Below are positions 610 through 59,683 of a stretch of 64,000 bases of DNA, piece after piece; positions within the stretch are counted from its first letter, which is position 1; the number at the start of each line of letters is the position of its first letter. This DNA comes from Takakia lepidozioides. Its lineage: Eukaryota > Plantae > Bryophyta. The notes under the pieces are model-generated. The model made no database searches. It was given only the letters and a program-made list of their open reading frames with translations, and had not been told where the DNA came from. A program made the position numbers and the translations under genes. The DNA lies in NCBI GenBank assembly GCA_030704615.1, contig CM060733.1, positions 63,426,001 to 63,490,000 of the forward strand, written 5' to 3'.

Positions 610-1610
610 TGTCGCGCGGCTTTTACTCACCCATCCCTTCGCTATCCGAGGCGGAAACTCCAAGATAGAAGAGTTGGAAATCTCTAAGTACTCAGCCCGC
701 GCAGAACAATCAGTCATGACCTACAGCTAGTGTATCATGGGGGTGTTTCCTATTTGTTTCCCTTTCCGCATTCATCTTAGCTACCTTACCATTGATAATT
801 AAGTATCAGTTTGCTTCATCGATCTATCGGTTCCCTCCACTAATCCATTCAATCCACAGCTTCACTCAGATCTCTCTACACAGTGTGATTGTATCGTATA
901 AGTATCAGATTATGATTTATCAGGTATCAGGCCGAAGCCATTATGTCTCTAATCTGCTCTACAATATCACTCTAGCTTTGCATATGACAAGCATCTACTA
1001 ATCCTCTTTTCTCCTTCATCGTGCTCTCCGATCTCCGCTCCCGCCTGACTCCGAAGTCCTCCCGAATAATGATCCCCTCATCATTCCCCGTTCTTCCCTT
1101 TATCCTCCTATCCGCGGTTCTAACCGTTTCCCTCTCTAACCGTCGTATGTGAACTAACATGTTCCCTTCACAGGTGTTGTTCCCCACAGTCGTTCCCTGT
1201 CCTACTCTTCGTTCCCTATTATCGTGACAGCTGTGTCAAGCGGTGACTGGCTGTGTTTGGCTGTGTCGGGCTGTGCCGGGCTGTGACTGGCTGTGTGGGC
1301 TGTGTCTGCTGTGACGACTGTGACGGGCTGTGTGGGCTGTGTGGGCTGTGACGGCTGTGTGGGCTGTGTGGGCTGTGACGACTGTGACGGGCTGTGTGGG
1401 CTGTGACGGCTGTGTGGGCTGTGACGACTGTGACGGGCTGTGTTGGCTGTGTGGGCTGTGACTGCTGTGTCGGCTGTGTGGGCTATGTAACCCCCCTCTA
1501 CAGTGCGCTGCTGTCACCCCTAAGGTTCCTGTTTGTCTCAGTCTGTGCAAAAATTAAGGGTACCCTACAGATCCCGTATAAGTGTCTAAGTCCCCTATAG
1601 TCCTCTAACA
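610..1610 (-). repeat. 3' LTR (1001 bp)
   Basis: Near-identical to 8852-9842. The visible differences are one extra 10-bp minisatellite unit and two compensating 1-bp homopolymer indels. Confidence 0.97.
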
Positions 1611-1614
1611 TTTA

Positions 1615-1628
1615 CCCCTTCCCCCCTC
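1615..1628 (-). promoter_or_regulatory. Polypurine tract
   Basis: GAGGGGGGAAGGGG on the minus strand, 4 nt before the 3' LTR. Confidence 0.9.
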
Positions 1629-1642
1629 AAAAAGCCGTGTCC

Positions 1643-7600: not shown

Positions 7601-8242
7601 AGAGCCAGATCCAGGCAGCCCGCCTGATCCCCCTGAGCCGACACCTTCGTTGGCCTGTGATCTAAGTGCTCCACTTGATCCAGGTCCAACGGGTTGGGAT
7701 GTCCTGGTTGTAGTCTCAACCTCAGCTGTTGGGTCTACTTCTTCATATTCTTCCTCTTCCAATTTCTTCTCTCCGTTTTCATCCTCCAAGTTCTGCCCTT
7801 GGGTTTCTTCTTCACTCATGTAACTCAACTGTAATGGTGTTGGAGAGTCTGAACTCTCCGTTGGCTCTGCCACATCCTCATCTCCTTCTTCATCTTCTGC
7901 TTCAGAAACTGGAGTTCCTGCTTTTGGTGTTCCATGCCAACTCTTATCAAAGATTTCTGTCAAGTCTTTTATCCAAGGATGTACCTCAGATCTTTCACCT
8001 CGTGATTGATCTTCTTCCTGTACCAATTCCCTTAATCTTTCTTGCAAAGAAACAGAAGGAGTGACATCCAACTCTAGTTCTTCCGGTATAGGTGATGCAC
8101 TTTTTGATCTTGATGGTGTGAGAGGTCCAGATGATTCCCCTATGTCTATTCCTCTCTCCCAAAGATATGGATAATTAGCTTTCAGATAGCTTTCTCTTTT
8201 TGATGAATATCTTTGTCGTCTAGCTTCTCTTTCATCACTCAT
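1643..8242 (-). CDS. Gag-Pol polyprotein (2199 aa, intact)
   Basis: Retrotransposon gag domain; CCHC knuckles (CAKCQNEGHTTAEC, CTICKMDNHSTENC, CYYCNQPGHRKAAC); protease LIDGGS; RT MPFGLCNAPATFQR...FLDDF; RNase H HCDAS...EREALA...DHQAL; integrase HHCC, WGLDF, SDQG, GQAE and GPY. Confidence 0.96.
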   Translation of the reverse strand: MSDEREARRQRYSSKRESYLKANYPYLWERGIDIGESSGPLTPSRSKSASPIPEELELDVTPSVSLQERLRELVQEEDQSRGERSEVHPWIKDLTEIFDKSWHGTPKAGTPVSEAEDEEGDEDVAEPTESSDSPTPLQLSYMSEEETQGQNLEDENGEKKLEEEEYEEVDPTAEVETTTRTSQPVGPGSSGALRSQANEGVGSGGSGGLPGSGSGGTGSVGSSATEAGNTVNIVGPEAGSAQGPPLGGRSTTKTTGPEGPAPARVPAPVSGQKVGPHMALQPTRAKPPFPIYSGKGDPDVHISQFEHMCIVNNENGDDAKMRLFPCSLIKKASEWYARFPDNHFLTWNGLNTAFRNRFRTSKTEDEVYGSLQQLKQKKHETVEEYMEKMELMMKKLAAVPAPGLQKTWFVSGLRPELQKKVDMLPHNTVEEAFETANRIEQLGMLRREKKEDEDSEDESDEEEEQELKRKSKRKEKLKRDNYEKRLEEILKKYATEAATHWRKGVWCAKCQNEGHTTAECHMKEKHCTICKMDNHSTENCYYNRRTATREPRQVRVHQVQPQPRRSNDQDHYGRSGGYNNGMEGRGNSRGNYQGNSRGNYQGNPRGNYQPGNQDYRNNPRPDQGRGPNGEELCYYCNQPGHRKAACSFWIRHQNEMRAPVNEGPVVAAHMVRPCVVPEVSTMIVTRSKAKLIPPVEEEEDETGSGNDMPEDEETWKDEKELHKEVADTIREMQKSTNIPVADSSDLDGEKEGSEEERKKEDADMQSNEETLAAVICQTKAEITIGQLLAVAPYCRHRLYQAINRIAQETGNTDLNSKVTSYNVKPEGREPVMDFDDSMPVIQLRIDVLIDGGSGVNIMTDQLRKKLGLSNMKPAPFTVTMADQRSVQPLGLIRGVKIQIQKMIFMITVTVLKMDEVMEAYSLLLGRPWLKQARVFHDWNSQLLTVHNGMHEIQITTKKSSRLPATRRPRGVREYDWRGGLDEEQEATLFAAHPEWEQVAEMRLESLSCLRGICCGVVSATPIEEETNCYPPHFYEEKEGEIEILEEPATVSLKDEVVTGWTITADEQVREVNVGTQEEPRMVKVGADLEPEFFEEAKSLFIKYRDVFAWSYEDLKGIPPEVCQHKIELEPGSVPIKQARYRMNPNYAQKVGEEIKKLAEAKFIYPIEYTTWLSPIVIVPKKNGKLRVCVNYKKLNACTKKDPFPLPFTEAVLDTVAGHEMYSFMDGFSGYNQVQVAEEDQGKTAFITDWGAYAYKVMPFGLCNAPATFQRVISESFHEYLDDFMQVFLDDFSVYSSKNEHLHKLELCLARCRMRGLGLNPEKCTFCVNSGVLLGHIVCKKGLLVDPRKTESIKVSPPPVNVKSLRRFLGQTSYYRRFVKRYAQIAAPLSKLLKKDAVFAWTAECQQAFEELTLSVTTTPVLINPHWHVVFHVHCDASGEALGAVLAQNVTGNIDSPVYYASRLMNSAERNYSTTEREALAMIYAVKKFRHYLLGRKFMFYVDHQALIYLVNKPLISGRIARWLIILHEFEFEVIYKPGRLHLVADHLSRLTTGEAATGVDDQLPDASLFVMEVQGSADEWLDWQWPIRYYLAHGQCPPSYGKEQRKRIAIKALPYTMVGSRMYKLGPDGVLKRCLYHHEVNKVLEEVHKGVAGGHFGEETTSRKILLAGYWWPTLFKDVHEYCQKCDECQRLGPLQRSGRMALHPTMPTEPFQKWGLDFVGPINPPSKNTQNRYIITATDYTTKWVEAKALRDNTAKSTARFLYENILTRFGCPLEFISDQGSHFMNETIELLTKEFMIVHRKSTTYYPQGNGQAEATNKILCTILAKIVNANRTDWDTKLLTALWSYRTSYKVTTKYTPFQLVYGMEALLPVEFLLPTMRTEWGKRMELQDSIKVRKHELYHVEEVRADAADNMTRIQMKRKEQFDEGKLKTFKTGDLVLWLQKKGKIQASKLKSPWKGPYVIQKMYDNNTAMLQTINKEMLGRVNANKLKGYSGIHDKPLQHDLHVEPQEQSRAAPVLRTEYGTLVARPSIYDRGGQNKRDTTYHSPSRRDTAYHSPSQRDTAYHSPSRRDTAYHSPARRDTAYHSPSRRDTAYHNLPQRVTAYHSLPQCNTAYHSVTQYDTACHSSTQPTKVTPSIESLASGHIITSGKWMTEEETEITLKIDTWRSGLVHTAHHETLNVNKVLTHKGLLLGNSKP
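1850..2120 (-). repeat. 30-bp in-frame tandem repeat at the integrase C-terminus (RRDTAYHSPS)n
   Basis: About 8 copies of GGCTGTGATAGGCTGTGTCACGCCGTGATG, built from 10-bp GGCTGTG subunits. Confidence 0.9.
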
Positions 8243-8263
8243 GTCCCATGTCTTTCATTTCTT

Positions 8264-8959
8264 TTAATGTGGCAATAACCAAAACTCTCTTCTGTAATAT
8301 CTCTCGTATATGCCTGGATTTCTTTCAAGCTTCAATGCACCCTTGGCTATACTTGAAGTCTCCGTTACCATATAACCATATGGCAAACAAGTCTGAAAAG
8401 CTGTTCTTGGTGTGAGTTTGATCCACAAAATATCCTTTGGAATCCAATTCTTTACCAGTACAAGCTCTTCATGCATATGAGTATAAACATTCACCTTTCT
8501 TTCTTCCCAGCCTTCAAACTCTACTCGTTTAATGGATAGCAACGCTATCACATAAACTAATGTTGGTAACCAACGTGCTCTTCCTCTACAGGCTACCTGA
8601 TAAATCTTTATCACTCCTTTCTCCAGACCCCATTCTGGATCAGCATCATGCACTCGTTTAAGAATATTTTCTTTACATCCGTCTGGCAATTCCAAGAACC
8701 TTTGAAAGAATTGTTTGGACAATCTTTCTTCCTTCGTTCCACAGGGAATTTGATTCACTTCAAATTCTTTAATGGTCCAACCACCATGATCCCACCAGAT
8801 GCCTGTCACATCTGGTTGTTCATGTCCCAGGTCCCCAGTATGGTCGCCAAATGTCGCGCGGCTTTTACTCACCCATCCCTTCGCTATCCGAGGCGGAAAC
8901 TCCAAGATAGAAGAGTTGGAAATCTCTAAGTACTCAGCCCGCGCAGAACAATCAGTCAT
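8264..8959 (-). CDS. Extra ORF upstream of gag, unknown function
   Basis: 231 open codons running from inside the 5' LTR across the PBS and stopping 22 nt before the gag ATG. Globular-like composition. Confidence 0.55.
   Translation of the reverse strand: MTDCSARAEYLEISNSSILEFPPRIAKGWVSKSRATFGDHTGDLGHEQPDVTGIWWDHGGWTIKEFEVNQIPCGTKEERLSKQFFQRFLELPDGCKENILKRVHDADPEWGLEKGVIKIYQVACRGRARWLPTLVYVIALLSIKRVEFEGWEERKVNVYTHMHEELVLVKNWIPKDILWIKLTPRTAFQTCLPYGYMVTETSSIAKGALKLERNPGIYERYYRREFWLLPH
8832..8849 (-). promoter_or_regulatory. Primer binding site (non-Met tRNA, possibly Arg)
   Basis: TGGCGACCATACTGGGGA, 2 nt after the 5' LTR. Confidence 0.8.
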
Positions 8960-9842
8960 GACCTACAGCTAGTGTATCATGGGGGTGTTTCCTATTTGTT
9001 TCCCTTTCCGCATTCATCTTAGCTACCTTACCATTGATAATTAAGTATCAGTTTGCTTCATCGATCTATCGGTTCCCTCCACTAATCCATTCAATCCACA
9101 GCTTCACTCAGATCTCTCTACACAGTGTGATTGTATCGTATAAGTATCAGATTATGATTTATCAGGTATCAGGCCGAAGCCATTATGTCTCTAATCTGCT
9201 CTACAATATCACTCTAGCTTTGCATATGACAAGCATCTACTAATCCTCTTTTCTCCTTCATCGTGCTCTCCGATCTCCGCTCCCGCCTGACTCCGAAGTC
9301 CTCCCCGAATAATGATCCCTCATCATTCCCCGTTCTTCCCTTTATCCTCCTATCCGCGGTTCTAACCGTTTCCCTCTCTAACCGTCGTATGTGAACTAAC
9401 ATGTTCCCTTCACAGGTGTTGTTCCCCACAGTCGTTCCCTGTCCTACTCTTCGTTCCCTATTATCGTGACAGCTGTGTCAAGCGGTGACTGGCTGTGTTT
9501 GGCTGTGTCGGGCTGTGACTGGCTGTGTGGGCTGTGTCTGCTGTGACGACTGTGACGGGCTGTGTGGGCTGTGTGGGCTGTGACGGCTGTGTGGGCTGTG
9601 TGGGCTGTGACGACTGTGACGGGCTGTGTGGGCTGTGACGGCTGTGTGGGCTGTGACGACTGTGACGGGCTGTGTTGGCTGTGTGGGCTGTGACTGCTGT
9701 GTCGGCTGTGTGGGCTATGTAACCCCCCTCTACAGTGCGCTGCTGTCACCCCTAAGGTTCCTGTTTGTCTCAGTCTGTGCAAAAATTAAGGGTACCCTAC
9801 AGATCCCGTATAAGTGTCTAAGTCCCCTATAGTCCTCTAACA
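8852..9842 (-). repeat. 5' LTR (991 bp)
   Basis: Direct repeat of 610-1610; contains a GGCTGTG(A/T) minisatellite at ~9467-9719. Confidence 0.97.
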
Positions 9843-12009: not shown

Positions 12010-12278
12010 TCCATGAGCGGATCTAAAAAACCATGAGCGGACTTGTTACTGACGACATATCTTCGCCGCACTACATGATCTGGAACGTCCAAAAACGGCA
12101 AGGTCAAATAAAAAACTATTATTTTAATACTTGTTTAATTTGCCGCATTTCCAAATTTGGAGGAGTCCGCTCATGAAATCCGCGTATCTTAGACTTCGGC
12201 TCACCGCTCATGCGGCTCATGCGGCTCATGCGGCTCATGGCTCATGGCTCATGGTTTCTGCTCATGAAATAGTAAACC
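12010..12278. repeat. Probable right terminus and subterminal repeats of the MULE-like element
   Basis: Clustered CATGAGCGG / (CG)GCTCATG repeats in both orientations, ending ...GCTCATGAAATAGTAAACC where integrase coding sequence begins abruptly. Confidence 0.55.
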
Positions 12279-12802
12279 TCCAAGCATGTGCCCAGCGGGC
12301 AGAGTTGTTCAAGAGAGTCATGCCTATGGCTTTTGAGAACCTTGTTATTGCCCAACACCGAGACACATTGAGGTACGCCACAATACGTGGAGGGGGATAT
12401 CGGCTAGGTGTTCGGCGTTTCCACCCTCGAGACTATGTGTATCTGCAGCAGATAGCGCCTACGACTTTGGATGTCACAGCAGGGTGTGTGATTCTAAGGG
12501 TCCGGGAGATGTTGCCTTCAGGAGTGTTGATTCTGGAGGGTCGAGATGGCATGGTATGGAAGGACCATGTGCGCAATTGTGCGCCATGTCACCTTCCACA
12601 TGTGGATGGGAGGATAGATCCCAACCTTGTAGTGGTACCTGCAGGGTTGCGTTGCATGCTATGTGGGCATGCTGGTGGTGCCGCGACCATGTTGGTGTGT
12701 GACAAATGCTCAAGGGGGTGGTACATGGGATGCTTGACACCGCCACTTGAGGAGGTTCCTAGTGGAGAATGGTTGTGTCCACGATGCCTTGGACATAGGT
12801 AG
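12278..12802 (+). pseudogene. Gypsy integrase C-terminus with PHD finger (diverged relative of the DNMT/PHD family)
   Basis: ACAQRAELFKRVMPMAFENL...CMLC...MLVCDKCSRGWYMGCLTPPLEEVPSGEWLCPRC (C4HC3 PHD with H replaced by Y). Homologous to 57355-57880. Confidence 0.88.
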
Positions 12803-12804
12803 TG

Positions 12805-15800
12805 TGTCGCGGCCCTTTGCCTTGAGGGCAGGGGGTCGGGACGCAGAGGGGTTGCCCCTGTGATGGGGGCGGTGGCAGCAATAGGTACGGGGGGCTGAAG
12901 CAACCTTGAGTGCCCAAGGCACTCAAGGAGGCGGAGGCACTCACTAGGTGGAGCCCCGCACACCGGGTTGCGGTGGGGGTGGCTCCACAAGGGGTGGTGG
13001 TAGCTTAGTGGGACTTAGTGGGGGTGGCATGGGACTCACCATGGGGGCGGAGACCTTGTGGTGGGAGTCGTGGGGAGTATTGGGACTCATCACGGCCCAA
13101 TGAAAGTTTGTGCCCCTCAATGCGTCTTGGCTTGCCCGGACAAGATAAGGAATCTGAAGCAAACGGATGACATTCGGGGATATGTTCAGGCTTTCAATGT
13201 GTTGTTGCTCGAAGTCGCGGACATGGCAAAACCAGAAATGGTCTTCATCTTTGTGGCGGGACTGGCCCCATGGGCCAGACGGAAGTTGGAGGAGAAGCCA
13301 CCTAAGACTTTGAATGAGGCAATTGAGAGGGCTGAATGTTTCTCGGATGTCCCTAGGGGCGAAAGACAAGGCCGTACGGAGCTGAACCACAAGAAGGTCC
13401 GGCGGGAAGGTGACTCCTTCCGACCGGAAAAGAAGTGGGATAGGCCACGCGGCGACAATGGCACATGGAAATCGAAGGGAGGGCCCTCACACGTCAAGAT
13501 GACACCCGGTGCCCCGAAAGGAAAACCAGGTGCGGCGGCTTATGGCGGACAGAAGGTGACCTTCGATGGAGTGTGCTTTAATTGCGGGGAACCCGGGCAG
13601 CGAAACCCCGACAATTGAACATGACTCGGGCAACCACAGAGTTGTCCGAGGATTCCATTAGCCGCTTGGTAGAGGCAGTGGTTGCCAAGACTTGCAAGGT
13701 AGGCAACTACTCTTGTGAGTTGTATCAGGAAACTGGCGCCTTGCGTAAAGGTTGTGAGTGGGATAATCTCCGGAACTAACGTGTCGTTGTTGGTGGACAC
13801 AGGAGCGTTGCACTCCTTCATGACACTGGCAATGGCACGGAAGCTGAGACTCCCGACAAGTGATGTGGGGGCCTCTATTGAGGTGCGTTCTGCCAAAGGA
13901 GAACCACAATTGGCGACGAGGTTGGCGTTCGATGTTCCTCTTCAGCTGGGGAGTTGGGAGGGACGTGAGAACTTCACCATTTGCGAGATCGATGGAGTGG
14001 ATCTCATTTTGGGGATGACATTTTTTAGCAGATTTGGAGTGGTCATAGATGGCCGCAAGAGGGTAGTCACGCTACTGTGTGGGAATGGTGGTGAAGTTTT
14101 ACGAGTGTCGAAAACACCCAACCCCGTAGGAGGGCGAATAAACCTTCTGTCAGCGAGGGAGTGGGCCGTGGAGGAGTCACACGAGCCCCAGTTTTTGCTT
14201 TATGTAAGACAAGTGAAGGGAGAAGGCGATGGGGAGCCGAGCCCAGATTGGATCAAGGGGATTTTGGAGAAATACCAGGATGTGATGCCGGAGGATTTAC
14301 CAAGCGGCTTGCCACCGCGAAGAGGAGTTGATCACAAGATTGAGGTGATACCGGGATCGGAGCCGCCTGCCAAGGCGCTCTACCGGTTGAGCCACAGAGA
14401 GTTGGTTGAGCTGAAGACTCAGCTCAAGGATCTAATGTCAAAGGGGTACATCCGGCCGAGTAAGTCACATTACGGAGCCCCGGTGCTATTCGCAGACAAG
14501 AAGGATGGGACGCTGCGGATGTGTGTCGATTACAGGGCTCTAAATAAGGTGACTATCAAAAACCGGTACCCTTTGCCAAGGATCGACGACTTTTTTGATC
14601 GGTTGGCAGGAGTGAAGTATTTCAGCCGGATTGATTTGCGCTCCGGCTACCATCAAATTCGAGTGGCGGAAGGAGACAAGGAGAAGTCCGCGTGTAGGAC
14701 AAGGTATGGTTCGTATGAGTTCTTGGTGATGCCTTTTGGGCTCACCAACGCACCCGCGACCTTTAGCACGCTAATGAACAGCCTCTTCCAGGAGTGGTTG
14801 GACGACTTTGTGATCGTGTACATCGACGACATCTTTGTGTACTCGAAGACAAAGGAAGAGCACCTAGAGCACCTCAAAAGGGTGTTCCAGAAATTACGGG
14901 AATGGAAGCTATATGCCAAAGCTTCAAAGTGCAAATTCGGGGTCACAAAAGTGGAGTTCCTGGGGCATGTGATTACACAGGATGGGATAAAAATGGATGA
15001 CAGAAAGGTGAGGGCGATCTTGGATTGGGAGCCTCCGACTTCGGTCCCGGGAGTGCGATCCTTCCTAGGACTCGCCTCCTATTACCGGAAGTATGTGAGA
15101 AATTTCGCCAAGATCACGGGGCCGCTGTCAGACCTCCTGTGTAAATCCAAAGTCTGGGTATGGAACACCTTTTGTGGCCAAGCTTTTGCCGAGTTGAAGC
15201 AGCGGATGGCGGAAGCTCCAGTCCTCAAAATTCCGGAGTTCGACCGTCCATTTGAGATCCATACAGATGTGTCGGACTTCGCAATTGGGGGTGTACTCAT
15301 GCAGGATGGACGTCCAGTGGCTTACAAAAATAAGAAACTGAATGAAGTGGAGCGACGGTGGCCTACGCACGAGAAAGAAATGAAGGCGGTGGTGCATTGC
15401 CTTGAGCTTTGGCGCCACTATATTGGTTCCAACCCGGTGAAGGTGTTCACGGACAATGTCACGGTGAAGTATTTTGCCACGCAGCCTAAGTTGTCCCCAA
15501 AACAAATTAGGTGGCAAGACACTTTGGCACTGTTTGACGTGGATATCCAGTACAAACCAGGACGGGACAATGTGGTGGCCGATGCTTTAAGTAGAAAGCA
15601 ACAGTTCATGATGGTGTACAGGGGCGAGACGGCGCTCCAAAGGAAGATCCGGAAGGCTTACCGAAAGGATGAGATGGCAAAGTCCGTGATGTGGGACTTG
15701 AGGATGGGGGTTAAATCGCAGTTCCACTTACAAAATGGACTGCTCCGGTACAAGCAAAAGCGTCTCTACGTGCTGAAGGGAGGGATCAGAGATAGTCTTT

Positions 15801-16482
15801 TAAGATAATGCCATGATGGTCCACTTGCGGGCCACGGCGGAGCCAAGCGCACCGCGGCACTCTTGAAGAAAGAGTATTTCTGGCCCAAACTGAGGGAGGA
15901 GGCTGAGGAGTATGTCAAGACATGCACCACATGCCAACAAAACCGGAGCGAGTACAAAAAGCAAGCGGGGCTGTTACAACCCTTGCCGATTCCAGAGGGG
16001 TCTTGGGAAAGTGTCTCGATGGATTTCATGACTGCTATGCCGCTGTCAAAAGGATTCGATGCAATCATGGTGGTGGTGGATAGGTTCAGTAAAATGGGCC
16101 ATTTCATTCCTACCAAGGAGACAGCAACGGCACAGGAGATGGGGCGACTTTACTTCGCCCACGTCTTCAAGCATCATGGACTCCCAAAGGATATTGTCTC
16201 GGACCGCGATCCAAGTTTACGAGTAAATTTTGGAGGGCACTTTGGAAGAAGATGGGGACGAGGCTCAAGATGAGCACCGCCTTCCGACCTACGACGGACG
16301 GCCAAACGGAAAGGGTGAATTCTGTGGTGAAGCAGATCTTGCGGAATTACGTGTCGGCGGATCAATCGGACTGGGTGGAGCACTTGGATGCGGCAGAACT
16401 CTGTTATAATAACACAAAACACTCCGCAACGGGAGTTTCCCCCTTCGTATTGGTCTATGGAAAAGCACCTTTGGTGCCGACA
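12805..16482 (+). mobile_element. Internally deleted, 3'-truncated Galadriel-like chromovirus (same family as 33957-40901)
   Basis: About 290 bp of 5' LTR fused directly to mid-gag, so the PBS is lost. PR LVDTGA, RT YIDD, RH, and IN to VPT. Homology to the other copy stops at 16482. No TSD. Confidence 0.92.
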
Positions 16483-18234
16483 GCAGATTCCTTTGCCGAC
16501 TTTGGCCCAGCAGGGACACGTCTTTCCTTTCTCTTCTCTTCTGCCAAGGCGTGCAGATCTTTCTCAGACTCGTCAACAATACCGCCAGACATGTCCAGGT
16601 ACCACGGGCATCCAACGAGATGCGCGGGATGCCATTGTTTCTGCATCTCGGGTGTGTAGACACAGCTTGGGCCCGCCACGGTCCAAGCCATGAAGAACGG
16701 GGGCTCTTGAGCCAGGGCCCCTGTCTGAAGGAGCACGTATTTCATATACCTGCAAGGCAGTCAGCATGCGTGAGCAAAAGTTGAGACCAACCTACTGGCA
16801 GAGTGCCACCGAAAACATAAAATGCGAATGCGGTGCCGCATTTCCGAGACAAACCTCGTAACCAGGCTTCGCATACAAGGGCAGCTGTGCTTCACCTGTA
16901 AACAATTCGCATTGCAGCTTTCCCCGCTCCCTCCTGATGTGTAAACTCCACGCTCCTTCTTGCTGTCTGTAGCTCTCTGGCGAAAAGGTTGTCCTTGTAC
17001 GCACATCTGAAACGTGTCACGTAGTCTTCCAATGTCTGTGTTCCATCCCATTTGACGTACAAGCCGAACAAATTTGTGTGCATTACGACTTGCTCCTTCG
17101 CATTCGACATTACCTGCCATTCCCAAATCCATTGTCACGTAGCAGTTCAGGGAATTCATGTCAGAAAAGCAAATCTGGGGAAGTACCTTGAATTACCTGG
17201 AACCACCAAGTCATACGGTTGAGCCACACATCCACTGCAGGGTCGGAAACTTCGAGTGGAAAAGACCACATTGTCCTTATGCTCTCGGATGCATTCCAGA
17301 TCGACAGCCACCGTGTCTGCCATTTCCGATCCAATGTCAGGAGCTGGAAGAGAGTGGCTATTGCTAGGAAGGAACTTCAGTGCATTGAAACCTCACCTTC
17401 TCTTTCGCCTCCACACATGCCGTTGAGAGGTGATGCAGTTTCTCCAATTGCATGGTCGGCTGCATGGCCCGAGAATAGTGTTTTGCAATCTCGGGGATGA
17501 AGTCCTGTGCCGGATCTGCAATTGCCACCAGCTTCACAAGCTTTGACTTGTATTTGGTTCTGGACTTGACACCGGCTTCCTTCAAGTGCTCAGTCAATGA
17601 CTGCAACGTTTTGACCTGCCCCTCACTTTCCATGAAGAAGCGTTTGGCATGGGCCAAATCCAGCTTGATGTTTGACTGCCAACAAAAACATGCAGAAGCG
17701 TTACATTCGATTCATGTGGAAACATTACTGAAAATTGGGGAAGGATGAGCGGAGGGAAATTGGAGCACGACTTACTTCGTATATCACCTCCGCCATTCCA
17801 TCCATAGTGAGACGATACCATGTCCGGTCTGTTTTTGCAACGGCTTTCTGAATGAGCTCGGGCTCCAGCATTTCCGCAAACATCTGCGGATCAGTGAGAC
17901 CAATTTTCCTCACCCTGTACAGCATGTGTGCCATGTGGGTATGCACGTACGCATTCTCAGTGACCCTGCAAGGCACACTCTCCAGTTCAGTACACGGAAG
18001 CACGGAAACAAACCAGAATGGAAACCGAAATGCGGCACCGCATTTCGAACGTGCTAGGGAGGGTATGAGTATCTTACGAGTTGAGGTCCGCCATGGCATT
18101 CTTGAGCAGGGAGGAGTCTGCCGCCTTCACCTTGAGGATGACACACTCCACCATGTAATGCCAGCCAATGTGCTTGGCATGGTTCTGCTTGATGTACTCC
18201 CACCAGGCGAGAAGTCGGTGATTCCCGTCCCACA
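16483..18234 (-). pseudogene. Multi-exon gene with ParB/Srx-like WDGNHRLLAW motif (copy 1), 5' part removed at the DNMT-Gypsy insertion
   Basis: Minus strand from 18234 reads VWDGNHRLLAWWEYIKQNH...LLKNAMADLNS|gtaag. Later exons include YVHTHMAHMLYRVRKIG and TRWLSIWNASES...MTWWFQ, bounded by GT-AG introns. Confidence 0.7.
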
Positions 18235-18561
18235 TGTCAAGTTATTTTACCACTAGTGTGAAACTAGCTAGGAAATAGCTAGCTTTTACATATTGACATT
18301 TGGGATTGGCCCAAGTGTCAATCCAGGGGTCAAGGCAGATTTAGGCCCTGGAGTTGTTATCTTCACGGCAAGCGCGGGAGGCTCATCTTTCTCGAGTTGA
18401 GCCTCACCGCGCCTAGCTATGGCGCCGTAGTGTGGATTCCCCATGGCATGGGGTGCACTTGGCTTGACTTGTATGTGAGTGATGAGGTTATATATGCATG
18501 AGTTTATGCTTCAGCTTTGTGAGCTCGCATGAGCTTGTGCTTGTATTCTTCCTCTTTATCA
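18235..18561 (+). repeat. Terminal repeat A1 (TGTCAAG...TTTATCA, 327 bp)
   Basis: Same length as, and near-identical to, the reverse complement of 56600-56926. Confidence 0.92.
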
Positions 18562-19229
18562 CTCGAGAAAGATGAGCTCGTATCTATGAGTGCTAGATAC
18601 GAGTTAGTTGTAGCACTTGTGGTTTTTGCTTGAGAATGAGAGAAACCAAGTTGTTATGCAAGGAGCACCGTGGAGCTCTTGGTTGTTAGAAGCGGAGGCG
18701 ATGTGGGTTACGAGGTGGTAAACCTTGGCATTCGATCTTCAGCTTCAGAGATGAAAGCACCATACTGTAGGTAATTCCAGAGCACCTTGATGGTTTCAGA
18801 TTGTGTACATGCATGAGCAAGCACGATTGGGAAGAGGACCAGTCAAGAGCAGGTTATAGTGGCTTTGGTGGCAAAGCTGAGAACTGGACTTGGGAATGCG
18901 AGCTGTCATTGTGTGAAGGATTGCAAGACCAAGCGAAAGGGCTGATTTGGCTTGGGGCAAATCAGTGCACTTTGTGGAGTATGGTGAGATTGGGTTTCAA
19001 TCTCGAGCTTCAGCATTGAGAGGGCTCTTGTCATGGCGAGAGCAGGGCTGGAACAGGAGCTAAGAGGTGCGGCAAGGCCATGGAATGTGCACCTAGGGTT
19101 ACAGAGCTTGGAAGAAGAGCTCTTGCACCACAAGATAAGTGTCTTGTGGCTGGAAATGTAAGCCTTAGGGTTTCAGGAGCTTGGCAAAGGCTATGGAGTG
19201 CTTAGTCTTGTCTTAGAGAGCATCAAGGA

Positions 19230-19760: not shown

Positions 19761-20094
19761 AAGAGGCTCTAAGACAGATGCTATGGCCAAGGAGAGTGCT
19801 TGAATGAGTGTTCACAAGGGCTGGGAACCAGCAGGGCTTGGTTGTTTGCCATTGAGTTTAGTGGCGTGTTTGGGTAGGCTAAGTGAGAAAGAAGGCTTGG
19901 TTTGTGGCAACCACCTCATGGCTTAGGGCTACTATGGTGGTGTGTGGGAGCCGAAAGAGCAAGGATACCTTGCTGATTTCCTCACAGCCACCATAGCTCG
20001 GTGGAAAGAAGCCTAGAGTCCAAGAGACACAAACCCTAGCTTGGCGTGGCTAAACCCCTTGGAGAAATGGCTAAACTGCCAGAGCGGCCATGTG

Positions 20095-21030
20095 TGGGGC
20101 TGTGACAGGCTGTGGCAAGCTGTGACGGGCTGTGTCAGGCTGTGGCGAGCTGTGACGGGCTGTGACGGGCTGTGACAGGCTGTGATGGGCTGTGACAGGC
20201 TGTGCCCTGTGCCTTGTGGGGCTGTGACGGGCTGTGTCAGGCTGTGACAGGCTGTGCCCAGTGGCCTTTTGGGGCTGTGACAGGCTGTGCCCTGAGGCCT
20301 GTGGGGCTGTGACGGGCTGTGACAGGCTGTGCCCATGGCCTTTGGGGCTGTGATGGGCTGTGAGGGGCTGTGACAGGCCGTGCCTGAGGCCTTTGAGGCT
20401 GTGATGGGCTGTGATGGGCTGTGACAGGCTGTGCCCTGTGCCCTGTGGGCTGTGCGGGGCTGTGACAGGCTGTGCCCTGAGGCCTGTGGGGCTGTGACGG
20501 GCTGTGACAGGCTGTGCCTGAGGCCTTTGGGGCTGTGATGGGCTGTGACAGGCCGTGCCTGAGGCCTTTGAGGCTGTGACAGGCCGTGCCCATGGCCTTT
20601 GGGGCTGTGACGGGCTGTGCGGGGCTGTGACAGGCCGTGCCTGAGGCCTTTGAGGCTGTGACGGGCTGTGAGGGGCTGTGACAGGCCGTGCCCATGGCCT
20701 TTGGGGCTGTGACGGGCTGTGAGGGGCTGTGACAGGCCGTGCCTGAGGCCTTTGAGGCTGTGACGGGCTGTGAGGGGCTGTGACAGGCCGTGCCTGAGGC
20801 CTTTGGGGCTGTGATGGGCTGTGACAGGCCGTGCCCATGGCCTTTGGGCTGTGACGGGCTGTGAGGGGCTGTGCAGGCCGCGCCTGAGGCCTTTGGGCTG
20901 TGACGGGCTGTGAGGGGCTGTGACAGGCTGTGCCTGAGGCCTTTGAGGCTGTGACGAGCTGTGAGGGGCTGTGACAGGCTGTGCCCAGTGGCCTGTGGGA
21001 CTGTGACGGCTGTGACCAGTGAGCTGTGTG
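20095..21030. repeat. GGCTGTGAC(A/G) 10-bp minisatellite with ~53-bp higher-order unit
   Basis: Directly visible array of about 0.9 kb. Confidence 0.95.
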
Positions 21031-21303
21031 GGCCTGTGCTGGTCTGTGGTGGCCCATGTTGACCTGTGGATGGCCTGTGCTGACTCGTGGAGGCACTGGT
21101 GGACTAAGGACTGGCATGTGGACTGGAAGGCCGAATTTTGAAGCTCGTGGAGGGCGGTTTGAGGAGTATCTTCATGATATCCCATGGTCATGCAAGTTCA
21201 GGTGTAGGCTATGTTAGGAACTTAGTATTCCAAACCATAAGCCGCAACAGGTTCTCTACCCGTTACCTTGTGGAGAGGGGGTTAGGGACATGTTCATGAC
21301 CGG

Positions 21304-23859
21304 TTGAGTGTCAACACGGAGGTGCCACTAGTTGCTGGGGACAGTGCCGGTTCGAGCACTAGCAATACTAGTGGGTACACGAGACGAGGTGTGCGGTTTA
21401 GGCCACCTTCACCTCCTGTGTCTTCCACGGAAGGTTCTGATTCAGATTGTGAATCGGGAGGGCTCATACCGGCGGTGCAAGTTGTTTCTTTGCCATTATT
21501 GTGGGACACAATGGAGGAGATGTATGGAGCTACCAAGGGGCCACGAAGGTACTCTGGGGCGGTGGGCACCATTGAGTTGGATGATTTTATCCAAGAGTTT
21601 GATAGTTGGTGTGATTTGCAGCAAATGCGCAATCCACAACTATTTACGCCGTTCATGGCATGGAAAGGGCTGTTTCAGCACCTTGAGGGACCGCCTATGG
21701 ATGATTACCATGAGTTCAGGGGGGGCATGAGGTTGAGATGAGGAGTGGAGGATGTACTGGTCACCCGACTATGTCTCCATCACTAGGGGCACTAGAGCCA
21801 CGAGGGCAGTGGCTACACCTGCCGCTGCACCGGCAGCTTCAGCAAGCAGCAGTGGGACTGGTGGTACAGTAGCTACGACGTCCACCCAAGCCACTACCGC
21901 ACCAGCACTAGCACCGTGCCTGCCTTCAACCCTGTTGTGGAGTTCTTCGAAGAGTTGAGAGGGAACTACCAAGGGGTGAGGACAGAGAAGTTGCGGAGCT
22001 TGCAAGAGTTCCAACGGAAGCCGACCGAGAGCTTGAGGGAGGCTTTCACTCGCATGAGGCGCTTGATAAATGTAACCCAGGGGTTACGGAAGCTCAGGCA
22101 GTCCAATTCTGGTATGGGATATTGGACAAGGAGCTGAGGAGAAGGGTGCGGGATGCAACTCTCCTACAAGCGGCCCAACCCACCTTAGCAAATGTGTTTT
22201 TGCTGGCAGAGCGGATAGAGCTCAACATGGTGGAGGAACGAGTGGTCATGGTGGGATTTGCTAAGGAGACACCACGGGGTAGTGGTGCTCCTAGCCAACC
22301 ACTACCTCAACGTGCTCAAGGCAACAAGGGGGCTCAGGTGAAGCTCAGGGAAGGGCAGAGAGGACCTCAAATGCAGGGGTCTCTCCCTTCATTTGCTGGC
22401 CAACAACGGGCGGATGTGGTGTGCTGGACATGTGGAGGACCCCATGTCAAGAAGGATTGCCCAGAGGGAGGCAAAGGGTCGGCACATGCACAGCCTGCAC
22501 AGTTGCAGTGTGGGCATTGTGGCAAGCACGGGCATGGAGAGGCCCAGTGTTATGTTTTGCATCCTGAGTTGCGCCCAGGCCAGTTCCAAGGGAACAATGG
22601 TGGCCGGGGGCGAGGTGGAGCAGCCCAGAGAGGACGAGGTGGCCAGCCACGAGGTGCAGGCCAAGGGCAAGCTCAACGTGGCCAAGGACGCGGAGGTCAG
22701 GGTGTTGACCAAGGCATGGCCAACCGGCTTCAGCAGCTAGAGCAGAGGCTCGCTGCCATGGCTACAGCTCAGGTGGTACCGGCTCTAAGGCCGGATGGTC
22801 CACCTCCTGCTCCTGAGGGAGGAGATATGGGAGGCATGGGATTCATGTGTGGAGCAGCACTACCACTAGTGCAGGTGGAGTCTGCTGCAGCCGTGACTCG
22901 AGGAGCAGCACGAGTTCCTGAGCCACGAGGTGCAGAGGTGGAGTTGGATCCACAGCGTGGGGAGGCAAGCCGTCAGGCTAGGCTTCCTCAGTCATTCACA
23001 TTGGCGGAGACAGTGTCGACGCCACCATGGCACCTAGTTCTCGCCCGACTATTACCGAGGCGGAGGTTACTATGCCATTGGGGAGAGCTACACGGGTAGC
23101 ACCACTACCTAGTGTTGCCAAGGCTACGGCAGCTAGTGTGCTGCTAGGAGCGGCCACATCTGTGTGCCAGGCTCCATTGTTCTCGGCTACCATGATTGCG
23201 ACGCCGGGGGTAAGACCAGCTGAGGTGTTCAGGCTGGCAGCTACACTCTGTGAGAGTGGGGAGTTACTTCATCTTCTGCGGAGATAGTGGGAGGTGTAGT
23301 GCCGGAGGGATCCTCGGATTTGAGGGTCAAGACTGCCACGGCGGCGCCATGGCAAGCTGCAGCTGCCAGGTTGATGGAGCTGCCAGCTAGGCCAGCCATT
23401 GAGCGCGCCATGGTGACACCTGGAGTTGTCATGTTAGACAACCAGGATGGCATTTTCTGTTTGAGTGGACCGGCAGGCAAGAGGTACCGGCCACTGCGAG
23501 TCTTGTTGGACTCGGGAGCTCAGCCATTGATGCTGGGCAGAGCTGCTATTGCAGGCTTGGGCCTCACGGAGGCGGATATGGAGCCTTGTCCTTTCCAGAT
23601 ACAGACGTCTCTGGGAGGATCGGAGCAGGCTCGGGGCATGACACGGCATGAGTTGGCTATCAGACTACGGCCGGATCACCCTACAGATGGCTCAGTGATG
23701 CGAGCCAAGGCCATTGTGACAGACGCAGTCTCATACGATGTCCTGGTTGGTGGGGCAGTGTTGTACCCCATGGGCTTCACCCTGGATTTTTGGGAGGAGT
23801 CAGCTTCCTATAGGCCTGCATGGCAGTCAGGGGAGGGCCGGCGTGTGCAGCTCCTGTGA
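21304..23859 (+). pseudogene. Gag and aspartic protease (frameshifted)
   Basis: FQRKPTESLREAFTRMRRL gag-like segment, zinc knuckles CWTCGGPHVKKDC and CGHCGKHGHGEAQC, protease VLLDSGA...DVLVG. Confidence 0.85.
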
Positions 23860-24214
23860 CGTTCATAGGAGGAGTTGCGGTTGCCCAGCGAGGCAAGATG
23901 CCGACACTAGCAGCATTCACAGCGGCAGTGAGTTGGCCTAGAGAGTTGCTTGAGGGCAATGCTCATTCAGAGGATGTACCACCTCCGGGAGAGCAGGATG
24001 ACATGTATGGTATGGCGGAGTTGCCTACCATGGTTGCTCAGACTCCATTGTGGGGCACGAGCAAGGATTTGCAGCGGGATGCTGATCGACGGGTGCAACA
24101 AGCCTGGGTGGAGGCTTTTGTACCGTCAAGAGAGGAGGAGAGTGTGGGGATTGCACCAGGACCACCTCAATTGTCTCCATTGGACACCACACCTATTGTG
24201 TGGCAGTCATCCGG

Positions 24215-25150
24215 ATGAAGGCATTTGTCTTCTGGACTTGTTTGGCGGGATCAGCACCGGATTGGCTGCTGTGTTACAGGCAGGTGTACGAGTTCGGCGT
24301 TACCTGTATGTGGAGAGGGATGAGACTGCACGACGCGTTTCACTTCGCCATGTTGCTCAGTTGGTGCAGCGGTACCCTGAGTTGTTGTCGGTGTCTGCAA
24401 TTCGTGGATATCAGCAGGCCTTGCCAGCAGACATTTCGTTGCTGGGGGCGCAGGATTTTGAGCGGGTTGGCTCCATTGATCTGGTAGTGGCAGGTTGGCC
24501 CTGCCAAGGGCATTCATCAGCCGGGCATGGCAATGGATTGCGAGACTCGAGGTCGGGTTGTTTTGGGAGATGGTGCGGGTTTTGCGCCACTTGCAGCTTC
24601 ATCAAGCTGTATCTCCACTCAGCATACATCTTGGAGAATGTGCCACTGATGGGCGATTCTCGGGCCAGGGTGATGGCCAGTGTGCATCAAGTCCGGTCGT
24701 GCTTGGGTCAGCAGTGTTGCTGGAGTGCAGCTACAGTGGGGTCACGGGCTCATCGTCCACGGCTATGGTGACTAAATGATGCCACCCGCACTGCTCAAGC
24801 GTGCATTTGATGGGGTGCAGCGGCCAGCACATCTCACAGTGGATAACATTTCTGGACACAGGGAGGGGCAGTCTCAACGTGTGAGACACGATGACCGTTC
24901 GCCTTTGGCAGTGGTCAACAAGGTGGGTCAACCACGAGCAGCATTACTCCACTGCTCAGCTTCCAAGATCGCATGCTTTCCGGATAGTGGACCTGGCTCC
25001 CTGTGGGATGCTCAGTTGCAGCAGTTAGTGGAGCCTAATGCTGACGAGCGTGAGCGGGCAATGGGTTTTTAACCATTGTACCACGGCGGTGTCGTCCTCT
25101 TTCTGATGCATCACGTCGTCAAGTGTTGGGGCAAGCAATGGATCTCATTG
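24215..25150 (+). pseudogene. C5 cytosine DNA methyltransferase domain, DNMT3-like, within pol (frameshifted)
   Basis: Motifs in order: I LDLFGGISTG, II YVERD, IV GWPCQGHS, V RDSRSGLFWE, VI ENV, VIII HRPRLW, IX ERERAMGF, X QVLGQAMD. Confidence 0.92.
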
Positions 25151-25183
25151 CTTGACCTGATTATCAGCTTGGCTCTAGCTGGC

Positions 25184-25683
25184 NNNNNNNNNNNNNNNNN
25201 NNNNNNNNNNNNNNNNNNNNNNNNNNNNNNNNNNNNNNNNNNNNNNNNNNNNNNNNNNNNNNNNNNNNNNNNNNNNNNNNNNNNNNNNNNNNNNNNNNNN
25301 NNNNNNNNNNNNNNNNNNNNNNNNNNNNNNNNNNNNNNNNNNNNNNNNNNNNNNNNNNNNNNNNNNNNNNNNNNNNNNNNNNNNNNNNNNNNNNNNNNNN
25401 NNNNNNNNNNNNNNNNNNNNNNNNNNNNNNNNNNNNNNNNNNNNNNNNNNNNNNNNNNNNNNNNNNNNNNNNNNNNNNNNNNNNNNNNNNNNNNNNNNNN
25501 NNNNNNNNNNNNNNNNNNNNNNNNNNNNNNNNNNNNNNNNNNNNNNNNNNNNNNNNNNNNNNNNNNNNNNNNNNNNNNNNNNNNNNNNNNNNNNNNNNNN
25601 NNNNNNNNNNNNNNNNNNNNNNNNNNNNNNNNNNNNNNNNNNNNNNNNNNNNNNNNNNNNNNNNNNNNNNNNNNNNNNNNNNN
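25184..25683. other. Assembly gap (500 N)
   Basis: Run of N. Confidence 1.
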
Positions 25684-35400: not shown

Positions 35401-35599
35401 CTACACACTAGCCAACCATACCATGCATCACCATTCCAAACAAAATAGGACGCACAACATTTGGAATCCATTTCATTTTTTTGTACAATACAAGTTTTTG
35501 CAATCGGATTTTCCAATACAAGCAATCGGATTCTAAGCTAGCTAAACCGGGCTAAGCATGCATTTCCTCCCCCACGCTCCAAGGTTGATGTCCCCATCA

Positions 35600-40130: not shown

Positions 40131-40170
40131 ATGAGGCCAATCCCAAGGACGATCGCGTACTGAACTCTAA

Positions 40171-40182
40171 GCTCTGATACCA
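40171..40182 (-). promoter_or_regulatory. PBS complementary to initiator tRNA-Met
   Basis: TGGTATCAGAGC, 2 nt after the 5' LTR. Confidence 0.95.
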
Positions 40183-52841: not shown

Positions 52842-53314
52842 GTATCGACACAAAATCCTTTTATATAGTAATTTGATTTAATATCACGATCCGTTCGTGG
52901 GCTTACATTGGACTTAAAAATGACTGAGGCACTTCTACAACTCTTTCCAAATTTGTAAGAAATTATTATCAAACGCCACAACCATTTTCTACTTGTGGAT
53001 TGCGAATGCTCCCAAACGCTAGAAATTAATATTGGCCAAAGCGCTTTTCTACTTCCAGTTCATAATCTTGTATTTAAGACCCCAGGTCCCCATGACTAAT
53101 CATGTTTTCAATCACTCCCACTTCACATTCCCAACCCCGCCTCCCTTCATATTTATGTAGACTGCCGAATGTATACGTTTCAGAAATTCAATGCTTCAAT
53201 ACATCAAACAAGTTTAAGATACTCAACTAGCTTTTAAAAAAAAAACAAAAAAATACTTGTCCATTTTGTGGTATTATATGTCAAAAATACTGATAGTCTG
53301 GTGAAAATATATGG

Positions 53315-56421: not shown

Positions 56422-57091
56422 TGTCGTGCGCATACATATCGCTACACAACTACATCGTTGTCCAAAACCACACAACACATGTGCACACCACACACTAGTA
56501 TACCACTAGTCCAGCCACTAGTCCAACCACTAGGCTACAACTAGTCAGTCACTAGGCTGCCACTATGCTGCCCACTATGGCAGTCACTAGTCCACACAAT
56601 GATAAAGAAGAAGAATACAAGCACAAGCTCATGCGAGCTCACAAAGCTGAAGCATAAACTCATGCATATATAACCTCATCACTCAAATACAAGTCAAGCC
56701 AAGTGCACCCCACGCCATGGGGAATCCACACTACGGCGCCATAGCTAGGCGCGGTGAGGCTCAACTCGAGAAAGATGAGCCTCCCGTGCTTGCCGTGAAG
56801 ATAACCACTCTAGGGCCTAAATCTACCTTGACCCCTGGATTGACACTTGGGCCAATCCCAAATGTCAATATGTAAAAGCTAGCTATTTCCTAGCTAGTTT
56901 CACACTAGTGGTAAAATAACTTGACAGTTGTTGTGCGCATACATATCGCTACACAACTACATCGTTGTCCAAAACCACACAACACATGTGCACACCACAC
57001 ACTAGTTTACCACTAGTCCAACCACTAGGCTACAAACTAGTCAGTCACAGTGCCACTAGGCTGCCCACTATGGCAGTCACTAGTCCACCCA
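56422..57091 (-). repeat. Split terminal repeats B1 (57091-56929), A2 (56926-56600), B2 (56598-56422)
   Basis: B1 and B2 are direct repeats flanking A2, and each unit is bounded by TG...CA. A PPT-like AGGGGGGCGA (57093-57102) precedes B1. Confidence 0.88.
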
Positions 57092-57351
57092 ATCGCCCCC
57101 CTAGCTGGTGCTTAGGTCCCTCTAAGTCCAGGTAGCCACAAGATGTGATAGTGACCATAACCTCACTAAGTCCTCCACCACTATCCCTACTACACTCAAA
57201 CTCGATAGATCAAGAGGCCGGGTGCAAGAGTTGCCCCATCGTTAGTCGCCGTCTTGCAATCTGTGAACTTGAGCTTGGGATCTCATGTATTGACTCCTAT
57301 GAGCTTGGCCTCTCATGTCTTGTTAGCTGCCTCCAGTCATGTCCACTGCCA

Positions 57352-59683
57352 CTATCCCAAGCAGTGTGGACACAACCAATCTCCGTCAGGAACCTTCTCA
57401 AGAGGTGGTGTCAAGCATCCCATATGTCAACCCCTTGAGCATCGATCACACACCAGCATGGTGGCTGCCCCTTTGGCAGACCCACAGAGCATGCACCTCA
57501 AACCTGCAGGTACCACTGCCAAGTTTGGGTCAACTCTGTCATCGACATTGGGAATGTGACATGGCGCACAATTACGCACATGGTCCTTCCAAGTCATGCC
57601 ATCCCGACCCTCCAAGATCAGGAGCCCTGAGGGCAACACCTCTCAAACCCTCAGAATAACACGCCCTGCAGTAACATCCAGAGTCGTAGGAGCAGTCTGC
57701 TGCAAAATAACATAGTCACCAGGGCTAAACCTCCGAACCCCAGGACGATATCCTCCACCACGTATAGTGGCATACCTCAACGTATCACGGTGCTATGCAA
57801 TGGCAAGGTTCTCAAAAGCCATGGGCATGGCTTTCTTGAACAACTCTGCACGCTGATCACATGCACGTACCCACACGTCCGGATCGTCAAGGTTAAGGAC
57901 TTGAGCAGTGTCCCTACAAATGGCTGCAGGCAAATCCGGCTCTCGGCCAAAGAGAAGGAAATATGGTGAGAAGGAGGCAAGTGATGTTTGTTTGCTGAAC
58001 TGTAGCCCATGGCTAACCAAGGAACCTGAAGATCCCAATCTCCTAGGTGTCCCTTCTGCAAGCCATACTTGCGCAAAACCCTCTTCACCGTCTGAACAAC
58101 TCTCTCTACTAAGCCATCGGCCTCAGGATAATCACGAGAAGTGGTGCGGTGGTCTATCAAGGCTTTATCACACAAAGCCTGAAACTCCCCAAGAACTCTC
58201 TCCCTTGGTCCGTGAGTACCTCAGCTGGAGCACCAAATCGGCTAAGCACACGATCTAAGAATGCATACGCAGCCCCATCACTAGCCTTGTCAGGCAATGG
58301 AACCAACTCAATCCACTTGGAGAAGTGCTCCACCATCAACACACATATCTGTGGTGGCGCATAGTCAGTGGCAACGGTCCTGCGAAGTCAAGACTCCACC
58401 TGTAGCCCAATCCCATGATTGGTAAAAGATGCAACTGTGGTGTAGGGGTGTTGAATGAAGCACGCACCCTGTCACACACCATGCACCTAGCCACGAACTA
58501 TTGCATCTCTGTATGCATACCACGCCACCAATACTGCCCTTGCAGTAAACTGTGAGTGCGTCGCACTCCAAAATGCCCCAACTCCTCATGGGCATGCCGC
58601 ACTAACCGTGCACGTTGTGTGGGGTGAGGCACAATCCTCACCCGACCATCCTCCCACACTCGAAGTAGGTGTATCCCCTCCCACTTGAACCTCTTGGCTC
58701 GTTGCAGGATCCGATCCCTCTCCTTGGCAGTCACAGTGGTTGCCGTGTCTCCCGTGCGGAGGTAGTCCAACACAGCCGAATCCTCATGTATATCTCTGGC
58801 ACCACCTGGCTCATCACTAGCCTCAGGGTCCTCAGACACTCCGTCTACAATCATCCCTGTTATAGGTCCAACCTGACCTCCCGATGCCAAGATACACAAA
58901 AATGCAGATGCGTGCCATCCCGGCACCATCTCCTCGTCCGTCTCACCATGCCACCGAGCTCCAGTGTCATCCTGCTGGCTCATGCATGGATTGCGGCTCA
59001 ATCCATCCGCATCCCGATTGACCAAACCCGGTCGATGCACAACCTAAAAGTCATACTCCTGGAGTATGAGTGCCCACCGTGCAAGCTTCCCCGTAAACTT
59101 GTCTGACTCCATCAACCACTTGAGTGGCTGGTGATCTGTGACAAGGGTGAAAAGATTGCCGTATAGATAGCACCTGAAGTGTGCCACGGCCCACACTACA
59201 GCTAAGCACTCTCCCTCATATGAGCTGTACTTAGCCTCTGCAGCGTTGTTCGAGCGGCTAGCATAAGCCACTACGAACTCTCTTCCCTCATCATCCACAT
59301 GTGTGAGCACCGCTCCAAGCCCCAGCATGCTCCAATCCGTATGCAGCTGAAAGGGACGCCCCCTGATAGGTCGTCTCAGGATAGGCGCCGAGGTCAACCT
59401 CGCCTTGAGCTCTTGAAAAGCTCGTTCCTGCTCATCTTCCACTGCCACTCCTGGTCCACCTTGGTCAGCTTGGTTAGAGCCTTTGCAATGGTACTAAATC
59501 CCTTGATAAACCGTCTATAATAGTTTGCCAACCCCATGAAAGCTCGAACTCGGCTCACATCCGTGGGGCGTGGAATTTGTGCAATGGCCTCTACCTTAGT
59601 CTGCTGTACCCCCAATCCTCCAGGATATATCATGTGACCCAGATACTCAATCTGGTTGTGGAAAAACTTGCACTTCCCCGGAT
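57352..59683 (-). pseudogene. pol (RT-RH-IN) with C-terminal PHD finger
   Basis: CMLC...[29 protein letters not shown]. Several stops and frameshifts. Confidence 0.9.

Follow-up and report, generated by a model that had tools for sequence, protein, structure and literature searches.

A candidate self-primed gypsy retrotransposon with A...B-A-B repeats in the moss Takakia lepidozioides

The window, as we call the whole stretch of DNA analysed here, comprises 64,000 nucleotides of the Takakia lepidozioides assembly GCA_030704615.1 (contig CM060733.1, positions 63,426,001 to 63,490,000, forward strand). It holds two partial copies of one Ty3/gypsy retrotransposon family, each showing part of an A...B-A-B arrangement of repeats (Table 1). 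The copy that begins at 18235, where contigs diverge into mixed flanks, contributes gag, protease and a cytosine methyltransferase; its 3' end is missing and falls in a gap of Ns (25184-25683). Reverse transcriptase (RT), RNase H, integrase and a PHD finger are supplied by a second insertion of the family on the minus strand. A preliminary description of this DNA had assigned a second A repeat to the element at 18235; the only A2 that the window contains, at 56926-56600 on the minus strand and with 97.9% identity to A1, belongs to this second insertion instead. A scan of metagenome contigs for the related family gave 122 related stretches, the best 80 of which we considered, and seven loci among these carry single elements with both ends (L028 stops inside A2). 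Since both ends occur within single loci of relatives, the two halves seen in the window belong to one element type.

Table 1. Features of the two insertions in the window and, in the last row, of the third family's locus L037 (own coordinates)
Feature	Position	Strand	Remarks
Repeat A1, 327 bp, TG...CA	18235..18561	+	left element end; predicted promoter, R, U5
Hairpin with 12-nt loop = primer copy	18372..18412	+	5' arm upstream of predicted start
Self-primer copy	18385..18397	+	predicted first 11-12 nt of RNA: 18385 or 18386 to 18396
Primer binding site (PBS) directly after A1	18562..18577	+	core 18562-18572/18573; beyond it, up to 18577, site 18574 varies
10-bp stem after PBS	18577..18603 (18577-18586/18594-18603)	+	closing pair mostly G-C elsewhere, here A-T
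Tandem array, ~10-bp units, in long 5' leader	20091..21050	+	
gag + aspartic protease + C5 cytosine methyltransferase	21280..25183	+	frameshifted, interrupted by N gap; from translations
Repeat B2, ends GACA	56422..56599	-	right element end
Repeat A2, then B2, no PBS	56600..56926	-	
2-nt spacer at B1/A2 boundary	56927..56928	-	most copies: palindrome GACA-GC-TGTC
Repeat B1, ends ACA	56929..57092	-	
Polypurine tract directly before B1	57093..57102	-	surrounding 46 nt 80-91% identical in relatives
Second copy: RT end, RNase H, integrase, C-terminal PHD finger	57355..59683	-	stops and frameshifts present
Third-family 3' end (L037)	16535-17201		G-rich tract, B1, 7-bp-arm palindrome, 339-bp A with TATA, B2; no PBS in locus

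A Pfam profile search of the plus-strand coding region recovered the methyltransferase (DNA_methylase, PF00145, E = 3.8e-07), with protease below the cut-off and gag without any match; the order gag, protease, methyltransferase is identical in the metagenome relatives. In the minus-strand coding region Pfam matched RT_RNaseH (1e-36), Integrase_H2C2 (1e-09) and PHD (7e-12), and the integrase core was recognised in translation. No tyrosine recombinase was seen in the element, which has a gypsy integrase instead. Among named proteins, the closest are those of Marchantia, Calypogeia, Sphagnum, Klebsormidium and Closterium. The RT-RNase H of one relative (L008) shares 52% identity with a protein from K. 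nitens, and the RT of a relative finds its best solved-structure match in Ty3. Among the 120 RT relatives listed, about 76 carry a PHD finger and two a chromodomain, the latter at 40-41% identity. Scans of viral contigs returned no family member with ends.

Several other elements share the window. An intact-looking gypsy element on the minus strand (610-9842) has 1-kb LTRs, a 2,203-aa ORF, a TGG-type PBS and a 5-bp duplication, and its LTR and the end of its pol contain ~10-bp tandem units like those of the leader at 20091-21050. Another gypsy family (33957-40901 and 12805-16482) has a 5-bp duplication and a TGGTATCAGAGC PBS, which we take to be of the initiator-Met type; a deleted copy of this family adjoins a fragment of a different PHD-integrase element (12272-12804). 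An AT-rich element with 1.5-kb terminal inverted repeats (97%) occupies 50408-56421, its edge abutting the right end of B2, and tandem arrays lie at 62823-63446 (~85-bp units), 43700-44400 (120-190-bp units) and 41100-42140 (TTTTAGGG-like).

Where does the retrotransposon end, and which of its repeats is the LTR? Contig depth across 56422 drops from about 1.2 million to below 1,000, with mixed loose ends (depths here and below are summed contig depths, not copy numbers). A2 is joined straight to B2, and B2 starts as B1 does. Because the purine tract precedes B1 rather than A2, the LTR that is copied is likely to be B+A; the A2/B2 boundary, which joins a PBS-defined end to a purine-tract-defined start, then resembles an LTR-LTR junction. 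We rejected two simpler assignments, namely that A by itself is the LTR (A2 is not preceded by a purine tract) and that A2 is a solo LTR inside a tandem B (no duplication at the edges of A2, and the same layout in many elements). At the B1/A2 boundary, contigs of X2 differ from the window letter at 56928 (95% of depth) and 56932 (97%), the spacer being GC in 95% of X2 depth, which yields a 10-bp palindrome. Both outer ends lack the two spacer bases. In the relatives, 4-bp target duplications are perfect at six of nine sites, match at three of four bases at two and are absent at one damaged end, and duplications of this kind at ends that lack the spacer fit the action of an integrase. The junctions between purine tract and B1 and between A2 and B2, together with ACA-NN-TGT (or a decayed ACA-NN-TAT), are kept in three families: that of the window, the related family and the more distant family represented by L037, whose integrase is 37-56% identical.

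B1 and B2 differ by 0.074 within elements (n = 7) versus 0.096 between elements (n = 49). A diagnostic base with three states is the same in B1 and B2 of all seven elements; the element's own B2 is the nearest, or tied for nearest, to B1 in just five of the seven. Among the best 80 of the 122 related stretches, B precedes a PBS-bearing A in none of 20 distinct copies. The same stretches provide 17 distinct right ends after the purine tract, nine of which run into A2 while eight stop after B. L036 (7554-8173, B-A-B) and L038 (13325-13482, B alone) represent the same insertion site and are counted in both groups, which shows that post-insertion change or the assembly itself can produce the short form. 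For this reason we rejected A-ORF-B structures as proof that 1-LTR circles integrate: post-insertion loss or assembly collapse suffices. One rearranged insertion (L013 5531-5819, L025 13159-13447) has the end of A followed by exactly 11 PBS bases and four extra bases before the final B, a junction that may reflect either a primer copy that was kept or a switch of template.

Turning to the left end, bases 18561-18577 match the reverse complement of 18381-18397 without a mismatch and pairing extends no further on either side, so that the perfect 17-nt complementarity reported in the preliminary description holds to the letter. A1 ends in CA at 18561; the first paired base is hence the last base of A, and its partner is 18397. 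The PBS proper begins at 18562 with CTC rather than TGG, in keeping with the earlier claim that a TGG-type site is absent. Could a complement of this length, anchored at the end of A, have arisen from base composition? In 5,000 dinucleotide shuffles of A the longest anchored complement was 11 nt (mean 5.3) and none reached 12, and the same anchored test gave 6 and 7 nt for the two ordinary LTR elements of the window, in both of which the PBS starts with TGG. The element has no other PBS beside the site after A1. ARAGORN found no tRNA within the window, and Rfam returned no match at 18200-18800.

The 17-mers had been expected to covary across subfamilies, and this proved true of part of their length. 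We aligned the window with seven relatives (MAFFT), picked from 23 PBS-bearing A copies so as to avoid deleted ones; the 12 core columns of target and PBS contain no gaps. At five of the 12 pairs nearest the repeat, both partners have changed between the two families with pairing preserved. Overall, 97.9% of 96 cells pair, compared to 92.2% in shuffles (0 of 500 reach the observed value) and 28-50% in slid registers. The five double changes stem from a single two-family comparison and therefore constitute one event, not five independent ones. Cognate 12-bp duplexes have predicted energies of -17.2 and -15.2 kcal/mol, swapped ones of -5.0 and -6.7. In a fuller count of 20 distinct relative copies (three same-site duplicates removed; 17 scored, three not scorable), positions 1-12 pair in 12-17 of the 17 relatives. 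Position 13 pairs in five relatives and is broken in the other 12. Since pairing restarts past this mismatch, with positions 14-21 paired in 10-16 of 17, the primer could be longer or variable.

Variation between contigs points to the same boundary. At 18574 a G>C change, which breaks pair 14, accounts for 20% of contig depth in X2 and 41% in X7 and is seen in the only X8 contig, and the variants listed for A in the contigs of X2, X7 and X8 include none that would restore the pair; one X6 contig has a mismatch inside the PBS core. Conservation of the pairing in other copies thus applies to the core, across two families, and fails at pair 14 in a large minority of the copies of the window family and in that one X6 contig. 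The absence of variants from the 17-mer of A within the window family carries no weight as evidence, since the X2 list names just 16 variable sites among the 327 of A. Judged from these comparisons, the conserved unit is 11-12 PBS bases plus the terminal A, not 17. A scan for repeat-anchored 12-nt complements across 1.44 Mb (loci plus window, both strands) found no further family with a primer copy and PBS.

If the 5' end of the RNA is to prime reverse transcription, it should lie at the target. Plant promoters place the TATA box about 30 nt before the start. Counted back from the first A of the target, a TATA is found at 31 nt in L011 and at 29 nt in the other relative subfamily, which would put the RNA start of these relatives at the first base of the target. 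In the window family the corresponding place holds just a degenerate word, and the most TATA-like one (18487-18495) lies downstream of the primer copy; by position from the relatives' TATA spacing, we infer a start at 18385/18386. The hairpin at 18372-18412 is present as the preliminary description had it, with a loop that overlaps the target. When we folded RNAs with sliding 5' ends, the probability of the primer-PBS duplex stayed at 0.00-0.04 as long as the RNA included 18372 and was about 0.7 for starts at 18375-18387. The predicted start leaves the 5' arm untranscribed in A1 and complete in A2, so that the hairpin would be intact in A2 only, where opening the primer copy costs 4.8 kcal/mol in the window and 9.7 in L059. 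The idea of a regulatory switch, put forward earlier, gains no clear support from this analysis: the hairpin prevails solely in RNAs that begin at 18372 or further upstream, and in L011 every tested start except one favoured the duplex. Masking of the 3' copy is simpler, and the folding models suggest that this is probably what the hairpin does. Relatives have their own hairpin over the same target site, and in one X13 contig (depth 5) the outer hairpin stem is altered and still pairs. The third family has no such hairpin by eye, which, along with the behaviour of L011, counts against a necessary role for it.

Some copies have lost part of the hairpin region. Separate deletions in the A1 copies of L007, L050, L060, L065 and L084 take away part of the hairpin and primer copy, a pattern that suggests instability of the inverted repeat in DNA. 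A short variant of A exists as well: 12 X2 and two X7 contigs leave A at 18333 (retaining 18235-18333, without hairpin or primer copy), and the loose letters of X2 past this point reach the same TTTATCA end within 30 bases. Downstream of the PBS, the 10-bp stem that had been described at 18577-18603 is likewise there. In X2, 18586 A>G and 18594 T>C make up 76% and 75% of contig depth, and the similar shares of these unphased changes suggest that the closing pair is compensated; X8 has only one of the two. The stem was not found in the related family.

Taken together, these patterns lead us to regard Tf1-type self-priming by the RNA 5' end (11-12 nt) as likely in this element, a judgement made from sequence comparison. 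The earlier proposal of tRNA-independent, Tf1-like priming is supported, in that the PBS tracks the element's own repeat through five double changes in two families. In the scheme we propose, transcription would begin at 18385/18386, the PBS would be bound by the initial 11-12 bases of the RNA, and RNase H would release these paired bases as a primer. Minus-strand strong-stop DNA would then copy the rest of A1 and jump to A2, where the hairpin would mask the competing primer copy.

What else might account for the complementarity? That it is a structural or chance inverted repeat without a priming role deserves next to no credence: A is indeed rich in hairpins (folding z -6.9), and five relative A copies are deleted in the hairpin region, yet none of 5,000 shuffles reaches 12 nt, and in two families whose letters differ the match sets in exactly on A's last base. 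The element, moreover, has no other PBS. We also think it very improbable that a host tRNA half or other small RNA primes synthesis and that the match in A is a decoy or relic. The PBS differs at five of 12 bases between families, each version matching its own repeat, so that two fragments would be needed, and the 18200-18800 region has no Rfam match; a tRNA half would nonetheless require no TGG, and such primers are described for some plant copia lineages (PMC6317226). Finally, the primer might come from A2 near the RNA 3' end, with the start lying downstream of the 5' copy and the 12-nt loop of A2 pairing with the PBS before being cut. Covariation fits either copy equally, the loop at 18386-18397 is exactly the PBS-complementary core, and the window family has no clear upstream TATA and a TATA-like word only further downstream. 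Nevertheless, we consider this version improbable. A 12-bp helix formed through a 12-nt loop is topologically strained, the TATA spacing of relatives puts the start at the target, and in the relatives' A2 hairpin (L059) the target is base-paired rather than exposed. The self-priming cases described in PMC7175516 and PMC4600332, moreover, use the 5' end. Of the two primer sources entertained in the preliminary description, then, the 5' copy gains from the TATA spacing in relatives, and A2 loses ground because its target sits in an intact hairpin.

Self-priming from the 5' end leaves the peculiar repeat order to be explained. Plus-strand synthesis would begin at the purine tract before B1, giving a first product of the form BA-ORF-BA. 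The two cDNA ends would be joined, producing the A2/B2 junction, and integrase would open it at the ACA-NN-TGT palindrome on the left. The 2-nt spacer would be lost in this step, and the inserted form would be A1...B1-A2-B2. We advance this permuted-LTR reading, end-joining followed by integrase opening at an internal palindrome, tentatively, giving it slightly less than an even chance. Random opening of a symmetric 2-LTR circle was rejected: such a circle, opened at either palindrome, should give the mirror form half the time, and its absence from 20 copies counts against a simple circle. An alternative keeps the same priming and has B2 and the ends remade by template jumps (B2 to B1, A1 to A2) or by an end-to-end jump of RT, with no free 2-LTR circle; jumps of the former kind have been proposed for split-direct-repeat elements that use a tyrosine recombinase. 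This, too, is a real possibility, if one we would place somewhat below even. Template jumps may be asymmetric, which fits the 0 of 20 A-B-A left ends, and A2/B2 junctions are mostly precise. On the other hand, jumps by themselves leave unaccounted for the exact join of PBS end to purine-tract start in three families, do not explain the filler bases at the A2/B2 junction in L060 and L013/L025, and still need the palindrome to be cleaved before a left end can form.

Why should this matter? The self-primer here would mark where the minus strand starts and, with the purine tract, indicates that the LTR as copied (B+A) differs from the integrated ends (A on the left, B on the right). On a tentative view, which we would put just under an even chance, this green-plant PHD-gypsy lineage separates the ends made by RT from those used by integrase, depends on end-joined cDNA as an obligatory step instead of a dead end and self-primes outside the Tf1/Tcn1 group and TAR. 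If true, this would be a third plant lineage with tRNA-free priming. The permuted-LTR reading would offer a testable explanation for the DIRS-like repeats of KnitGypsy-Dnmt3, reported without a mechanism, and the element would let one study in nature a long-standing issue, namely whether retroelement DNA with joined ends can serve as a genuine precursor of integration. LTR finders that expect paired LTRs would likely mis-delimit such elements.

The closest described system is KnitGypsy-Dnmt3 of Klebsormidium nitens, which combines gypsy domains with a Dnmt3-type methyltransferase in pol and has DIRS-like repeats in the order A, coding region, B-A-B (PMC5890265); the passages of that report on the element give no PBS, priming mechanism, purine tract or target duplication and do not account for the order of its repeats. 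Its gypsy pol domains, C5 cytosine methyltransferase within pol and A...B-A-B repeats are all found here. In the literature on Gypsy-Dnmt3 elements (mostly open access; supplementary figures aside) we found no account of priming or repeat order. By description, Gypsy-7a_cRei (PMC9940879) and REM1 (PMC2774666) of Chlamydomonas are likewise green-lineage gypsy elements with a PHD finger. Gypsy-7a_cRei has subdivided, slightly unequal LTRs (PMC9940879), and the portions of the two reports that describe these elements give no priming or repeat logic (PMC9940879, PMC2774666).

Self-priming by itself is already known, including in plants. The Tf1 primer stays on the cDNA. It consists of the RNA's initial 11 bases, cut off by RNase H (PMC7175516). 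As in the published descriptions of Tf1/Tf2 of Schizosaccharomyces pombe and of Tcn1, the PBS of our element abuts the 5' repeat, lacks TGG and has about 11 bases matching the predicted RNA start (PMC7175516, PMC4600332, PMC6317226). One survey predicts self-priming for 12% of the plant elements covered (PMC6317226), among them TAR copia elements (Houba, Osr-1), which belong to another superfamily and have ordinary LTRs. The Tf1/sushi elements, plant Tcn1 included, are described with ordinary paired LTRs, whereas the repeats here are permuted. Plant Tcn1 elements are described as carrying a chromodomain, and the present lineage is set apart from them by its C-terminal PHD finger and methyltransferase.

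In split-repeat elements with a tyrosine recombinase, the internal B/A junction mirrors the two ends, as it does here; to our knowledge, such elements make no target duplication. PAT, TOC1/Ngaro-type elements and SymbioDIRS are described with the same A...B-A-B layout (PMC5890265). What sets our element apart from the DIRS/PAT group is its gypsy integrase, together with a PBS, a purine tract and, as seen in relatives, target duplications of 4 bp. For a DDE integrase that cuts an internal palindrome to processed ends there is precedent: foamy virus integrase is reported to cleave the palindromic LTR-LTR circle junction (PMC1180852), and HIV-1 integrase likewise (PMC1905944). In these viruses, as reported, the palindrome is the end-to-end junction itself, whereas here it lies within the B+A unit and one copy is kept in each full element.
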